Source: Gammaproteobacteria bacterium
Lineage (GTDB): Bacteria; Pseudomonadota; Gammaproteobacteria; Steroidobacterales; Rariloculaceae
Direction: 5' to 3'
DNA length: 44,194 bases
NCBI GenBank assembly: GCA_963581225.1
Contig: CAUZMW010000003.1
Coordinates: 1-44,194, forward strand
A model generated the notes under the pieces. The model searched no databases and was not told the origin of the DNA. It worked only from the letters and a program-made list of their open reading frames with translations. Made by a program: the position numbers and the translations under genes. Below are positions 2 through 10,506 of this stretch, one piece after another. Positions within the stretch are counted from its first letter, which is position 1. Every line of letters starts with the position of its first letter.

Positions 2-529
2 ACCCGGACGCCGTCGGGCCAACCGCCTTTGCTCATCGACATGGCGATCCCGGCCGACATTGACCCGGAGGCCTGCGCGCAGCTCGATATCGAGCGCATC
101 GGCATGGATCGCATCACCCTCGAAGCCAAGACCAACCGCGGGGCGCGCCTGATCGAAGCGGCGCAAGCGCGCGAACTCGTCGACGAGGCCTTGTTAAGAC
201 TGCGCGATCGTTTCGCCGAGCGTGTCTACGGCCCGCTATTCGGCGCGCTGCAACAACGTTACCGGCATACGGCCCAGGAAGGCGTACAGCGACTGCTGAA
301 GAAGGAACTGAAAGGACTCGGCGTCGAAGAACGCGAAGCGATCGAGACCTGGACCGAAGTGCTGGCGCGGCGGTTCGCGCACATCCCCTGTCTCGGCCTG
401 CGCGGACTCCTCTATAACGGCCCCGACGGTTCACTGGACGCGTTCCTCGACGGCCTCGATCCCGAGTTCGCCGACGAATTGCGCCAGGCACTCGAACAGG
501 CATCGACACCAAAGCGGGCGGCGGGCTGA
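2..529 (+). CDS. hemA: Glutamyl-tRNA reductase, C-terminal part (5' end outside window)
   Basis: Frame open from the window edge; IDMAIPADIDP resembles the HemA IDLAVPRDID motif, followed by a helical dimerisation-like region; stop overlaps the hemC start. Confidence 0.8.
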   Translation, partial: TRTPSGQPPLLIDMAIPADIDPEACAQLDIERIGMDRITLEAKTNRGARLIEAAQARELVDEALLRLRDRFAERVYGPLFGALQQRYRHTAQEGVQRLLKKELKGLGVEEREAIETWTEVLARRFAHIPCLGLRGLLYNGPDGSLDAFLDGLDPEFADELRQALEQASTPKRAAG

Positions 530-1449
530 TGAAGATACGAATCGGCACGCGCGGCTCGCATCTAGCGCGCACCCAGGCTACAACCATAGCGACCGAACTC
601 GCCGAACTCGGCCACGAGACGGAGCTCGTCATCATCAGCACGGCCGGCGACCTGTCCGACGCGCCGAGTTTCGGCGCGATCGGCCCAACCGGCGTCTTCG
701 TACGCGAGATCGAACAGGCGTTACTCGACGATGCCGTCGACGTGGCCGTCCATTCGTTCAAGGACCTGCCGACCGAATCGCCTCCCGAACTCGTCATCGC
801 GGCGATACCGCAGCGCCACGACGAGGCGGACACGCTCATCATGACGCACGAAGCGAAGGCGGAGAAGCCCGGAAGCGTACCGATAAAAGACGGCGCGCGC
901 GTCGGCACCTCCTCCGCGCGGCGCCAGGCCTGGCTCAAACATCTTCGTCCCGATCTTCAGATCGAGCCACTACGCGGTAACGTACCGACGCGCATCGGCC
1001 GCCTGAACGACGACTTCGACGGCATCATACTTGCCGCTGCGGGGGTCACCCGGCTGCAGAAATCGGCGCTCGACGATCGTCCCGATCTCGATCTCGACGA
1101 GCGTATCCTCTGGCGACTCGACCCCAAGACGTTCGTACCCGCACCCGCGCAAGGTGCACTGGCGCTGCAGTGCCGCGCGGCGGACACGGAGGTTACCAGC
1201 GCGCTCACTATCCTGGGCCATGGCCCGACGCAACTTCATGTCGCCATTGAGCGCGCGTTGCTGATCCGCGTCGAAGGCAGTTGCGATCTCGCCTTCGGCG
1301 CCTATTGCGGGGAATCGAGTCGCGGCGACGGCACACTCGAACTCGTCGCCATGCTGGAGCACGATGACAGACTCATCGTCGCCAAGACTCACGGCAAGGA
1401 CCCCCACGCGCTCGTCGATATGGCCTGGGAAACACTGCAAGACCCATGA
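529..1449 (+). CDS. hemC: Hydroxymethylbilane synthase (porphobilinogen deaminase)
   Basis: IRIGTRGSHLA, AVHSFKDLP, GTSSARR, LRGNVPTR, PAPAQGAL and cofactor Cys in EGSC. Confidence 0.97.
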   Translation: MKIRIGTRGSHLARTQATTIATELAELGHETELVIISTAGDLSDAPSFGAIGPTGVFVREIEQALLDDAVDVAVHSFKDLPTESPPELVIAAIPQRHDEADTLIMTHEAKAEKPGSVPIKDGARVGTSSARRQAWLKHLRPDLQIEPLRGNVPTRIGRLNDDFDGIILAAAGVTRLQKSALDDRPDLDLDERILWRLDPKTFVPAPAQGALALQCRAADTEVTSALTILGHGPTQLHVAIERALLIRVEGSCDLAFGAYCGESSRGDGTLELVAMLEHDDRLIVAKTHGKDPHALVDMAWETLQDP

Positions 1450-2180
1450 ACGAGCTATCCGGACAGAGTGTGCTTCTCACGCGCAGCGAGGATGACTGCG
1501 CGGACTGGGCGCAGGAACTCGAAGCGATGGGCGCTACGGCTGTGATACTGCCGTGTATACGTAGCGAGCAGATCGACACCGCCGAACTTCGCGAGCGAAT
1601 CTCGGCCAGCTTGCCGCGTACCGACTGGCTCGTATTCACATCGAAGCGCGGCGTCGCAGCCTTCGTCGCGTTACATGGCGAGCCACTGCCCGATATCATC
1701 GGTATTGCCGTCATCGGACCGACGACCGCCGACGCGGCCGTCATCGCGTTCGGCCGCGCGGACCTCGTCAGCGAGGTGGGCACGGCCGAATCGTTGGCGC
1801 AGGCACTCGAGACGCACCTCACCGAACCCAACGCGCAGATCTTGATTGCCGTGGCGGAGAATGCAGGTTACACAATCGAGGATACGCTGCGTGCGGCCGG
1901 TGCGTACTGCACGCGGCTCGAGGTCTATCGAACCGTGGCGGCCGACGAGCTGACGCCGAAACAGGCGCTTTCGACATTCGATGCGGATAATGTATTTCTC
2001 GCGAGCCCTTCGGCGGTAACGGGTTTTACGAATCAGGTCGAATTGGACACACCGGCCGCGATCTTTACGATCGGACCGGCCACGAGCGAAGCGGCGCTGG
2101 ACGCCGGCCTCGAGGTGACGGGACAGGCGAGAAGCTCGGGGATCGAAGGATTGATGGAGGCGATGAGATGCGCGATATAG
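1446..2180 (+). CDS. hemD: Uroporphyrinogen-III synthase
   Basis: VLLTRS, WLVFTSKRGV, IGPTTA, VYRT, ASPSAV, IGPATS motifs; ATGA overlap with hemC. Confidence 0.9.
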   Translation: MNELSGQSVLLTRSEDDCADWAQELEAMGATAVILPCIRSEQIDTAELRERISASLPRTDWLVFTSKRGVAAFVALHGEPLPDIIGIAVIGPTTADAAVIAFGRADLVSEVGTAESLAQALETHLTEPNAQILIAVAENAGYTIEDTLRAAGAYCTRLEVYRTVAADELTPKQALSTFDADNVFLASPSAVTGFTNQVELDTPAAIFTIGPATSEAALDAGLEVTGQARSSGIEGLMEAMRCAI

Positions 2181-8051: not shown

Positions 8052-8059
8052 AAGGAACG

Positions 8060-9145
8060 ATGGCGAACACGCGCGACGCGAACGTCGATCACGAGGGCCA
8101 CGACTACGACGCCATACTCGTCGTGTCGTTCGGCGGCCCCGAGGGTCCCGACGACGTCGTGCCATTTCTCGACAACGTGCTACGTGGATTGAAGATCCCG
8201 CTAGCGGCCAAAGAGCGCATCGCGAAACGTTACGAGCACTTCGGCGGCGTCAGTCCGATCAACGCCGAGACGCGCGCGTTCATCGCGGCGCTCGAGAGCG
8301 AGTTACGCGCGCACGGCATCGACCTGCCCGTGTACTGGGGCAACCGCAACTGGCACCCGCTGCTGGCAGACACGCTCGAGAGAATGCAGGCAGACGGGAT
8401 CAAGCGAGCACTGGCGCACGTGACCAGCACGTTCGCCTCCTATAGCGGTTGCCGCAAGTACCGCGAGGATCTGTACGAGGCGACCGCGGCACTCGAGCAG
8501 CCGCTAGTCATCGACAAGCTGCGGCTCGGGTTTAACCATCCGGGGTTCCTCGCCGCGACCATGGGCCGTACACACCAGGCATTCGAAACAATACCCGCTG
8601 CGCGACGAGCCGAGACCCCACTATTGTTCACGGCTCACAGCCTGCCCAAGTCGATGGCTGAACATGCCCCCTACGAGGCGCAACTACACGAAGCCTGCGG
8701 GCTCGTCGCCGCGGCGCTCGAGCACGATGAATGGGCGCTCGCCTACCAGAGCAACAATGCAGCATATGGGGAGCCGTGGCTGGAGACTGATATCTGTGAG
8801 AAATTGCGGGACCTCGGCAGGCTCGGCGTGCAGGATGTTGTGGTGATGCCGATCGGCTTTGTCTGCGATCACATAGAGATCGTGCTCGATCTCGACATCG
8901 AGGCGCAAGCCGTCGCTGATGAAGCCGGCGTAAATATGGTCCGTGCGGCGACGGTCGGTGCGCATCCCACCTACGTCGGCATGGTCCGCGAGCTCATTGA
9001 AGAGCGCATGAGTTCGAATTCGGAACGGCTGAGCTTCGGCAGGCTCGGCCCAAGCCATGATTTCTGTCCCGCGGACTGCTGTCTATCGGGCCGACCCGGC
9101 GATCCGAAACCGGCGCTGTGTGGCGTCCCGGGAACCGAAGCTTGA
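8060..9145 (+). CDS. hemH: Ferrochelatase, actinobacterial-like (probable coproporphyrin ferrochelatase CpfC) with putative [2Fe-2S] cysteines
   Basis: SFGGPEG, YEHFGGVSPIN, VYWGNRNWHP, FTAHSLP, PIGFVCDHIE; YSGCRKY plus C-terminal CPADCC. Confidence 0.93.
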   Translation: MANTRDANVDHEGHDYDAILVVSFGGPEGPDDVVPFLDNVLRGLKIPLAAKERIAKRYEHFGGVSPINAETRAFIAALESELRAHGIDLPVYWGNRNWHPLLADTLERMQADGIKRALAHVTSTFASYSGCRKYREDLYEATAALEQPLVIDKLRLGFNHPGFLAATMGRTHQAFETIPAARRAETPLLFTAHSLPKSMAEHAPYEAQLHEACGLVAAALEHDEWALAYQSNNAAYGEPWLETDICEKLRDLGRLGVQDVVVMPIGFVCDHIEIVLDLDIEAQAVADEAGVNMVRAATVGAHPTYVGMVRELIEERMSSNSERLSFGRLGPSHDFCPADCCLSGRPGDPKPALCGVPGTEA

Positions 9146-10506
9146 CCGAGATTCACGAGCATGACGCGATCGTCATCGGCGCCGGCCTCGCGGGACTGGC
9201 CGCGGCGCTGAAGCTGCAGGCCGCGGGCGTCGATGCGCGGGTCATCGAAGCGCAGGATCGAGTCGGCGGCCGCGTGCACTCGATGCGCCAGTTGGGCAGT
9301 AATAAGGAAGCCGGCGGTACCTACATCGGCGCCGGTTATACGCGCGTCATCGGCGCGGCCGAACGCTATGGCGTCGGGCTCATCGACGTGACGCCGATGC
9401 TGGCGTTCTTCCGTGAGCAAGAACTCGTGCTTGGCGATGAAATCATCCGTCAGGCGGACTGGCCCGATCATCCCGCAAACCTGTTCCGCGGCGACGACAA
9501 GCCGATCATGCCGTGGGCGTATCACCGTTTGCTCACGGTGCGGGAGAATCCACTGACACAACCCGGCGACTGGCTCGCTGCCGACGCGGCCGCCTATGAT
9601 GTCTCGGCTTACGACTGGCTGAAGAGTCTCGGTCTCGACGACGACGCGATCAAGCTCGCCTATGGCATCAACGTCAGCTTCGGCAAGGACGCCCATGACG
9701 TCTCGGCGTTGTTGCTGTTTTTCCGTGCGGCCTTTTCCGTTGCGCAACGTCGCTTCGCGCCCGAGGGCATCGTCGGCTACACGGCCAGGAACGGCGTCGC
9801 CCGCATCCCCGAGACCATGGCCGAAGCGTTGAATCCACCGGCAGAACTGAACAAGGTGGTCGTGGCGATCACAACCCAGGCGGATCACGCCGAGGTACGT
9901 TGCGCGGATGGCAGTATCTATCGGGCGCCGCACATCGTGTGCTCGCTGCCGTTCGGCGTACTGCGGCACATCGACATGAATCCGCCGCTGCAGGGCCTGC
10001 AAGCTGAAGCGGTCAACACGCTGCCGGCGCAGGCCGTGACGCAGGTCTATCTCGCCCACAAATCCAATTTCTGGGAGGCGGACGGCTACACGGCGAGTCT
10101 ATTTACCGACGGCGTTGCCGGCATGGTAGCGGCCGCGAGAAACGGCGCCGACCCCGAGGAGGTCACGAGCTTTACGGCCTGGACGCTCGGACCGAACGCG
10201 AGCGTACTCGACGCGCTGGCGCCGGCCGATGCCGGCAGGCGCGTGATCGCGGAGATCGAACGCATACGGCCCGCCGCCAAGGGCCAGCTCGAATTTTTGG
10301 GGCTGAAGTCCTGGGGCACGGATCCGTTCGCTCAGGGCGGTTGGGCCTATTTCAAGCCCGGCCAGATCACGCGTTTCGGCGCCGCGATGGGCGCGCCGCA
10401 CGGCCAGATACGATTCTGTGGCGAGCACCTGGGGCGAGTCAGCCGCGGTATGGAAGGCGCGATGGAATCCGGCGAACGCGTCGCCGCCGAGATCCTCGAG
10501 TTATAA
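9142..10506 (+). CDS. FAD-dependent flavin amine oxidase family protein
   Basis: [35 protein letters not shown]...[12 protein letters not shown] start overlaps the ferrochelatase stop (TTGA). Confidence 0.88.

Follow-up and report, generated by a model that had tools for sequence, protein, structure and literature searches.

A heme biosynthesis operon of eleven genes opens the stretch of DNA analysed here, a window of 44,194 nucleotides on contig CAUZMW010000003.1 (C3) of the gammaproteobacterial assembly GCA_963581225.1 (G000; 2.55 Mb in 195 contigs, 96.3% complete), and its late genes are of the coproporphyrin-dependent (CPD) type. The operon joins hemA, hemC, hemD, hemB and hemL to a uroporphyrinogen decarboxylase gene (hemE), a divergent gene of the coproheme decarboxylase fold (chdC-like), a coproporphyrin-type ferrochelatase gene (cpfC) and a gene for a FAD flavoprotein resembling monoamine oxidases (MAO-like), with a histidine kinase and a response regulator inserted ahead of hemE. 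The identities of the genes, their conservation and distribution, the foreign origin of the late genes and the failure to find a known oxidase are established. With moderate confidence, the operon is read as holding a complete CPD pathway to heme b with the MAO-like protein as its oxidase. HemA, HemC, HemD, HemB and HemL together with HemE would provide coproporphyrinogen III, which the MAO-like enzyme, standing in for HemY (CgoX), would oxidise to coproporphyrin III; CpfC would insert iron to give coproheme, and the divergent ChdC would decarboxylate coproheme to heme b. The late module, comprising at least hemE, chdC and cpfC, would have entered the ancestor of the host's family horizontally and replaced the HemF/HemJ/PpfC route kept by sister families. 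The host genome contains two genes for heme-copper oxidase subunit I (COX1) and its owner therefore needs heme.

The genes were identified with Pfam and NCBIfam profiles (Table 1). All eleven are encoded on the forward strand between positions 2 and 10506, each of the ten junctions is either an overlap or a gap of at most 10 nt, and the G+C content is even throughout (0.62-0.66). The initial annotation had named hemA-C-D-B-L-E, a Cld/ChdC-family gene and a ferrochelatase with tight junctions, all of which the profiles bear out, but three genes within the same coordinates, coding for the kinase, the regulator and the MAO-like flavoprotein, had been overlooked, and hemL does not directly adjoin hemE, as the kinase and regulator genes intervene. 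The statement that no hemF, hemN, hemG, hemJ or canonical hemY occurs in the window is correct and extends to the whole assembly. The GlutR_N domain was matched nowhere in the assembly, and the 5' half of hemA is hence considered unassembled; since the contig begins inside this gene, the promoter region of the operon is unreadable in the host genome. At the homologous loci of relatives hemA precedes hemC. The MAO-like gene overlaps the ferrochelatase stop and finishes precisely at the end coordinate given in the initial annotation (10506); a GTG at position 9118 is an alternative start for it.

Table 1. Genes of the heme biosynthesis operon, with positions in the window and the profile matches or relatives on which their assignment is based
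Feature	Position	Strand	Basis of assignment
hemA, glutamyl-tRNA reductase (3' 175 codons only)	2-529	+	Pfam GlutR_dimer; TIGR01035 positions 268-394
hemC, hydroxymethylbilane synthase	529-1449	+	TIGR00212, 258 bits, above cut-off
hemD, uroporphyrinogen-III synthase	1446-2180	+	Pfam HEM4, 134 bits
hemB, porphobilinogen synthase	2168-3172	+	NF006762, 457 bits, above cut-off
hemL, glutamate-1-semialdehyde 2,1-aminomutase	3169-4485	+	NF000818, 575 bits
Sensor histidine kinase	4475-5560	+	Pfam HisKA, HATPase_c; ATG at 4475 after AGGAG
OmpR/PhoB-type response regulator	5557-6273	+	Pfam Response_reg, Trans_reg_C
hemE, uroporphyrinogen decarboxylase, foreign type	about 6284-7333	+	TIGR01464, 388 bits
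ChdC-like, probable coproheme decarboxylase	7335-8051	+	Pfam PF06778 Chlor_dismutase, 45.5 bits (cut-off 25), C-terminal half only
Coproporphyrin-type ferrochelatase (CpfC), Cys-rich C-terminal tail	8060-9145	+	Nearest solved relatives are CpfCs
MAO-like FAD flavoprotein (454 aa), candidate coproporphyrinogen III oxidase	9142-10506	+	Pfam Amino_oxidase PF01593, 166.9 bits, full length

The ChdC-like protein is very divergent, sharing 13-19% identity with solved coproheme decarboxylases (ChdCs), and the solved structure nearest to it in sequence is that of a Thermus protein (1vdh, E 1.4e-5). An AlphaFold model (predicted local distance difference test score, pLDDT, 92.8) comprises both ferredoxin-like domains, and the best matches in a fold search are the coproheme decarboxylases of Corynebacterium, Streptomyces, Listeria and Geobacillus (E about 1e-12, template modelling score 0.65-0.69), with chlorite dismutases ranking beneath them. 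Tyr135 and His158 of the C. diphtheriae ChdC, whose two-residue numbering offset was verified with the W183Y entry, have Tyr139 and His162 as their counterparts in the window's protein. The two do not vary among 11 diverse members of the clade and presumably represent the radical site and the proximal ligand, respectively. An Asp177-x-Arg179 motif is also invariant in the clade and may or may not correspond to the distal catalytic arginine of functional chlorite dismutases. Fold and residues together make the protein a probable coproheme decarboxylase. The clade to which it belongs comprises 603 clusters at 50% identity and at least 589 species genomes, including those of the Proteobacteria, Chloroflexota, Acidobacteriota, Thermodesulfobacteriota/Dadabacteria, Elusimicrobiota, Planctomycetota and Thermoleophilia, with further cluster members named Polyangiales and Lentisphaeria. 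Some members carry an N-terminal aldo/keto reductase (P0127 and P0157; 628 and 591 aa) or Clp_N domain (P0132; 402 aa), in apparent fusions that are possibly merged gene calls. Their use as HemE-ChdC 'Rosetta stone' fusions was discarded on account of these domains, and a Tat signal in the N-terminus of the window's protein ('DRRLFMK') was likewise rejected, the residues forming confident beta-strands of the ferredoxin-like fold.

The ferrochelatase is closest among solved structures to 28wn, 'Coproporphyrin III ferrochelatase' (E 1e-70), followed by the CpfCs of Firmicutes (about 1e-36) and human ferrochelatase (1e-25), suggesting that the enzyme is of the CpfC type and may prefer coproporphyrin. 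The initial annotation had proposed late genes of the CPD type in a diderm host, and this is supported. Cys131 is conserved in all 40 aligned rows of operon-type ferrochelatases, while Cys336, Cys340 and Cys341 of the C-terminal tail are found in 39 of them, the sole exception being a truncated contig (three genomes entered this alignment twice). The four cysteines constitute a candidate [2Fe-2S] site. Excerpts of PMC8529089 describe a survey of [2Fe-2S]-carrying ferrochelatases by motif; the actinobacterial [2Fe-2S] CpfCs are resembled here in the best solved relative, 28wn, and in having one internal and three C-terminal conserved cysteines, spaced in the window's protein as C131 ... C336-x3-C340-C341.

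No known enzyme for the oxidation step between HemE and CpfC was found. The host assembly contains no better match to HemY (TIGR00562; cut-off 97.85) than the MAO-like gene itself, at 29.4 bits; a canonical HemY hidden in that gene was rejected, as the profile matches the Rossmann part only (profile positions 3-56, 29 bits). Profile searches of the host assembly likewise recovered no HemG-type flavodoxin, HemJ, HemF, HemN or DyP N-domain, and a porphyrinogen oxidase of the DyP/YfeX type, a lead taken from excerpts of PMC3215433, was dropped for want of a Dyp_perox_N match. The search was extended to a panel of 41 genomes, made up of the host, 24 further members of its family (f1) and single representatives of 16 sister families in the same order. 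CgoN (DUF1444, PF07285) was found in none of the 41, with a positive Bacillus subtilis control. HemY scored above its cut-off in two of the 24 family genomes (G004 and G014, treated below), and in none of five genomes that carry three operon layouts outside the family. The closed chromosomes G018 and G019 of the family contain no HemF, HemJ, HemG-like or true HemN match, nor a HemY above the cut-off. As regards the marks of the CPD pathway, a ChdC is thus present by fold and residues and HemF, HemN, HemG and HemJ were not found, but neither CgoX nor CgoN was found either.

The obvious candidate for this step is the MAO-like flavoprotein encoded directly after cpfC. Among 80 loci drawn from genome_contigs, a MAO-like gene follows cpfC in 23, all within the proteobacterial ChdC clade; these are 23 of the 28 loci labelled as proteobacterial, and the other five end at a contig edge before that point. 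The arrangement is seen at none of the 52 loci that belong to other phyla. The link between the two genes recurs in four layouts, namely the eleven-gene form, hemC-D-B-hemE-chdC-cpfC-MAO, hemA-kinase-regulator-hemE-chdC-cpfC-MAO and hemE-chdC-cpfC-MAO. Among the carriers of the operon are MAGs labelled 'Alphaproteobacteria' and 'Pseudomonadales'. In Chloroflexota (L075) and Thermoleophilia (L087) loci with the same ChdC clade, a canonical HemY (TIGR00562, 313 and 260 bits) stands right after cpfC, and the MAO-like gene thus occupies the slot held elsewhere by HemY.

The modelled MAO-like protein (pLDDT 90.2) adopts the MAO fold, with VIA Z-scores of 33-37.5 (37.5 against MAO-A) and a root mean square deviation of about 3.2 A over 420-430 aligned residues. 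HemY itself falls within the wider FAD amine-oxidase fold class. No PgoX or CgoX occurs among the Foldseek or VIA matches shown for the model, which is no proof of a different fold class, and the ESM Atlas yields only generic 'flavin monoamine oxidase family' clusters. Lys296 of MAO-B, which we take to be catalytic, is replaced by Gln (Gln301 in the 454-aa numbering) in 36 of 36 operon-linked rows, while Tyr398 and Tyr435, presumably forming the aromatic cage, correspond to Trp401 and Gly436 in 39 of 39 rows, and the equivalent of Cys397 is Gly or Ala. PDB titles among the structural matches also name Tyr435 as a cage residue. These replacements set the protein apart from ordinary amine oxidases. 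Ile62, Gln93, Arg129 and Gln301 are invariant in the 36 operon-linked rows (33 genomes) and differ in three paralogues outside the operon, which come from genomes of three sister families (G026, G034 and G038). The latter proteins are exported, share 46-51% identity with the operon copies and have an N-terminal extension of about 45 residues; methylmalonyl-CoA mutase and HpcH aldolase genes are their neighbours, and no hem genes are found within about 8 kb of them. These relationships hint that the copy in the heme operon may be a local recruit from this subfamily.

Within the panel, the distribution of the late genes sets the host's family apart from the remainder of its order. The ChdC-like protein is encoded in 21 of the 24 family genomes and in none of the 16 from sister families, while HemF shows the reverse pattern (0/24 and 14/16), as do HemJ (1/24 and 11/16) and true HemN above the cut-off (2/24 and 8/16). 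The sister-family tallies include an unpublished genome, G039, without which they become 0/15 for the ChdC-like protein, 13/15 for HemF, 10/15 for HemJ and 8/15 for HemN. Nor was the ChdC-like clade found (E <= 1e-10) in any of 399 other genomes sampled evenly across the class, one further genome being unscorable. Operon ferrochelatases are 52-71% identical within the family and 24-30% identical to those of the sister families, and the corresponding values for hemE are 54-84% and 39-45%. In a hemE tree of 47 rows, which left out G039 and four loci whose tblastn segment contained a stop, E. coli is placed inside the sister-family group (support 99), and the operon-type hemE sequences make up a clade of their own (support 100). 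The approximately unbiased (AU) test rejects a vertical grouping of the family with its sister families (p-AU 0.0018, at a cost of 32 log-likelihood units); this grouping was fixed after the tree had been viewed, though it is the a priori vertical expectation, and an earlier framing with all Proteobacteria against one monophyletic outgroup was uninformative. On the grounds of the gene distribution, the ferrochelatase and hemE identities and the hemE tree, the late branch is foreign to the order yet ancestral to the family, the transfer being an old one at the family base, and the acquisition of a coproporphyrin-type late branch by the host's family is highly probable. The ChdC tree places all 38 proteobacterial rows in one clade (support 99) opposite those of the Chloroflexota, Acidobacteriota and others, and as it is unrooted no donor can be named.

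The early genes tell less. HemB is 45-53% identical to its counterparts in sister families and 52-57% to those of Chloroflexota, and the hemB tree has weak deep nodes, with E. coli and three sister-family rows on very long branches, and does not show hemB to be of foreign origin. The horizontal acquisition proposed in the initial annotation, to be examined by phylogenies of each Hem protein, thus stands for the late genes, on the distribution and on the hemE tree and AU test, as an old event, and is not shown for the early genes; the contrary case which it had named, an operon ancestral in the host's lineage, is what family-wide conservation reveals. With the queries used, the genomes of the three sister families that carry the MAO-like paralogues gave no match for hemE, ferrochelatase, HemJ or the ChdC-like protein, and HemF was lacking in G026 and G034 and only marginally matched in G038. 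They retain a divergent hemB, encode four to eight copies of the MAO-like paralogues each, and may be heme auxotrophs or users of another route.

A natural deletion is found in G004, a congener of the host (95% complete), whose alignment to the window (nucleotide identity about 79.5%) runs from base 5 to 7291 and resumes at 10225. Lost with this one 2.9-kb deletion are the end of hemE, the whole of chdC and cpfC and about 361 MAO-like codons; cysH-cysB-cysG come next, as in the window. On another contig of G004, a single frame of 809 aa, possibly a fusion or the result of a missed stop, combines a ferrochelatase (TIGR00109, 299 bits) with a true HemN (558 bits), beside a canonical HemY (305 bits). 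A second family member, G014, has the full coproporphyrin module plus separate hemH, hemN and hemY genes in the same order as in G004. This hemH-hemN-hemY set is a compact late cluster of the protoporphyrin type in a family otherwise without it. Three genes have been exchanged for three in G004, which fits the MAO-like protein as the third late enzyme.

The order of the operon was compared in the 20 kb surrounding the ChdC-like gene in 12 genomes representing 12 genera of the family. The order kinase-regulator-hemE-chdC-cpfC-MAO-like is kept in all 12 and the full set of eleven genes in 11, the twelfth (L026) showing a 0.9-kb gap in place of a hemD match past the thresholds. The cysB gene lies next door in eight of the 12 loci and cysG beside it in six. 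In public sequencing runs, a single contig of 8281 nt (X3, possibly the source of this very DNA) bridges positions 6200-11400, one of 2000 nt (X4) covers 9421-11400 and one of 6635 nt (X5) covers 6200-9314. Portions of hemE, chdC, cpfC and the MAO-like gene are also represented among the contigs of an RNA library (X18), one piece of 150 nt spanning the cpfC/MAO-like junction; such contigs are no proof of transcription of the operon. That the linkage is an artefact of assembly or binning, or a recent transfer private to this genome, might be suspected of a draft metagenome-assembled genome (MAG) in 195 contigs whose contig starts within hemA. The identical synteny in all 12 relatives, closed chromosomes among them, the bridging contigs and the even G+C content leave this suspicion next to no probability, and the chimera considered in the initial annotation is rejected.

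A different reading of the late branch would remove it from the CPD pathway altogether, with the ferrochelatase using protoporphyrin IX, the Cld-family protein binding heme or handling peroxide and other enzymes making protoporphyrin. Its appeal lies in the divergence of the ChdC-like protein from solved ChdCs and in a score on the NCBIfam HemQ equivalogs (34.6 against a cut-off of 235) that is far too low, a point which also weighs on the pathway favoured here, as well as in the separation of the clade from hem genes in many phyla and the occasional aldo/keto reductase or Clp_N fusion. The nearest solved relatives of the ferrochelatase are, however, coproporphyrin ferrochelatases, Tyr139 and His162 are invariant, ChdC folds outrank chlorite dismutases, and operons of Chloroflexota and Thermoleophilia hold the same clade between hemB and hemE beside CpfC and HemY; nor was HemF, HemN, HemJ or HemG found in the host. 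This alternative is accordingly considered improbable. More room is left to the possibility that the operon is of the CPD type and that the MAO-like protein oxidises an amine, perhaps supplying H2O2 for ChdC, or has another role unrelated to heme, the oxidation of coproporphyrinogen being either non-enzymatic or the work of another, as yet unrecognised enzyme. Here the best sequence and fold matches, to MAO, putrescine oxidase and nicotine oxidoreductases, speak for an amine substrate, as do the paralogues without nearby heme genes in which the altered catalytic residues recur. On the other side stand the linkage to cpfC in four layouts, the occupation of the HemY slot, the failure to find an alternative oxidase, the invariant residues specific to the operon copies and the loss of the MAO-like gene together with chdC and cpfC in G004. 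An amine oxidase or other non-heme function consequently appears rather unlikely.

Several observations count against the MAO-like protein as the oxidase of a complete CPD pathway. All of the enzyme activities are ones that we infer, above all that of the MAO-like protein itself, whose similarity to MAO and putrescine oxidase (phmmer 1e-33, with the VIA scores given above) lies far above that to HemY models. The replacements of Lys296 and Tyr435 are common to the paralogues in non-heme contexts, so that the unusual active site marks the subfamily and is no peculiarity of the heme operon. Flavodoxin_5 matches (HemG-like) above the cut-off occur in four family genomes (G007, G008, G010 and G023) and a HemJ-like match in one, while an operon-bearing genome outside the family (G443) encodes elsewhere a protein of 482 aa with 48 + 41 bits on TIGR00562. 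The absences reported above come from family-profile searches of draft genomes and signify 'not found' as opposed to 'absent'. The co-deletion in G004 is a single event over adjacent genes and indicates joint dispensability as opposed to a common function, and the hemH-hemN-hemY contig of that genome could be mis-binned. With these points taken into account, the identification of the MAO-like protein as a non-orthologous coproporphyrinogen III oxidase is still somewhat favoured. By a slight preference, it would join CgoX and CgoN as a third class of this oxidase, drawn from an amine-oxidase subfamily at the time when hemE-chdC-cpfC settled in the Proteobacteria, with the kinase/regulator pair as a dedicated controller.

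The pathway of the Bacillota and Actinomycetota (UroD, CgoX/HemY, CpfC/HemH and ChdC/HemQ) is the nearest known counterpart, and the combination of hemE, a CpfC-type ferrochelatase and a ChdC-fold protein implies that the chemistry would be alike. The early genes are likewise clustered there in the order hemA-C-D-B-L; B. subtilis distributes its genes over two operons, hemAXCDBL and hemEHY. The system described here differs in its diderm host, its single operon, the lack of HemX, the embedded two-component system, a MAO-like gene in place of CgoX or CgoN, neither of which was found, and a ChdC of a separate, uncharacterised clade. In the Chloroflexota and Thermoleophilia, the operons of the type hemC-D-B-chdC-hemE-cpfC-hemY-hemL (L075, L087 and similar loci) contain the same ChdC-like clade, at 55-62% identity, among their hem genes, but encode a canonical HemY, follow another gene order, lack the sensor/regulator pair and mostly possess a ferrochelatase of a different type (28-32% identity), only two Caldilineaceae loci (L066 and L071) reaching 53-55%. 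With the flavin monoamine oxidases (MAO-A/B, putrescine oxidase, cyclohexylamine oxidase and NicA2) the MAO-like protein has the fold in common over its full length, whereas the equivalents of Lys296, Cys397 and Tyr435 are Gln, Gly/Ala and Gly and the context is heme biosynthesis. With the HemY family (PgoX/CgoX) and CgoN (YtpQ, DUF1444) it would share the reaction, the six-electron oxidation of coproporphyrinogen III; FAD is a cofactor common to the HemY family, with TIGR00562 matched in the dinucleotide-binding part only, and no similarity to DUF1444 is evident.

The histidine kinase has hydrophobic segments at about residues 6-31 and 103-125, followed by the HisKA and HATPase domains. Its transmembrane segments, a membrane-proximal WEG-FF motif and the catalytic core are conserved, whereas the intervening loop (about residues 32-102) contains not one invariant residue among 24 aligned homologues, which would fit sensing within or at the membrane. 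Neither the kinase nor the regulator reached the cut-off of any NCBIfam equivalog. Both occur together in the family and in the L055/L111 group, whereas the hemC-D-B-hemE layout lacks them. Judged from its position, the pair probably tunes the transcription of heme or heme-related genes.

The closest named relatives of the host are MAGs labelled Candidatus Rariloculaceae, placed in the Gammaproteobacteria by the NCBI taxonomy, and the operon proteins of locus L033 share 66-87% identity with those of the window. Downstream of the operon lie cysH, cysB (minus strand), cysG, a gene for a pyridoxal phosphate-dependent enzyme and an NDH-2-like gene, and farther on an AcrB/MFP/OEP efflux set. The Gram-negative context that had been read from the cysH/cysB/cysG and RND/TolC genes holds good, and the host, an uncultured marine bacterium, is a diderm gammaproteobacterium. 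The cysH gene (about 10.7-11.39 kb) is interrupted by an in-frame TAA at 11006-11008, beyond which homology to phosphoadenosine phosphosulfate (PAPS) reductase resumes in the same frame. Position 11006 is C (CAA, Gln) in the contigs from X5 and X18 and T in those from X3 and X4, and the stop is either a strain-level nonsense variant or the mark of a pseudogene. Two PhoD-like phosphatase genes and a gene for a DUF5916 protein form a close group on the minus strand (23565-25133, 27517-29040 and 29051-31123), hinting at a phosphate-scavenging cluster.

According to excerpts of PMC10740692, PMC8529089, PMC10427985 and PMC10604556, Proteobacteria use the protoporphyrin route and the coproporphyrin route belongs to Gram-positive bacteria and some Chloroflexi and Acidobacteria, while excerpts of a 2026 review (PMC13564367) state that the reported enzymes cover all known heme-synthesising organisms. 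In the literature outside subscription journals and supplements, no description was found of such an operon, of a proteobacterial CPD pathway of this kind or of a MAO-like coproporphyrinogen oxidase. A marine gammaproteobacterial family and at least two further proteobacterial groups combine ChdC and CpfC with no known oxidase found and one obvious candidate gene, and the 'missing enzyme' is directly testable. The family is also a clean example of a diderm lineage whose late heme branch was replaced through horizontal transfer; one member (G014) holds both sets and another (G004) has reverted. The shorthand 'coproporphyrin route = Gram-positive' is weakened by these findings, which bear on the use of CgoX, CpfC and ChdC as taxon-specific drug targets and as pathway markers in metagenomes. 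If the proposed role of the MAO-like protein is true, whole diderm lineages would make heme by a variant that is not listed in the excerpted text of PMC13564367.

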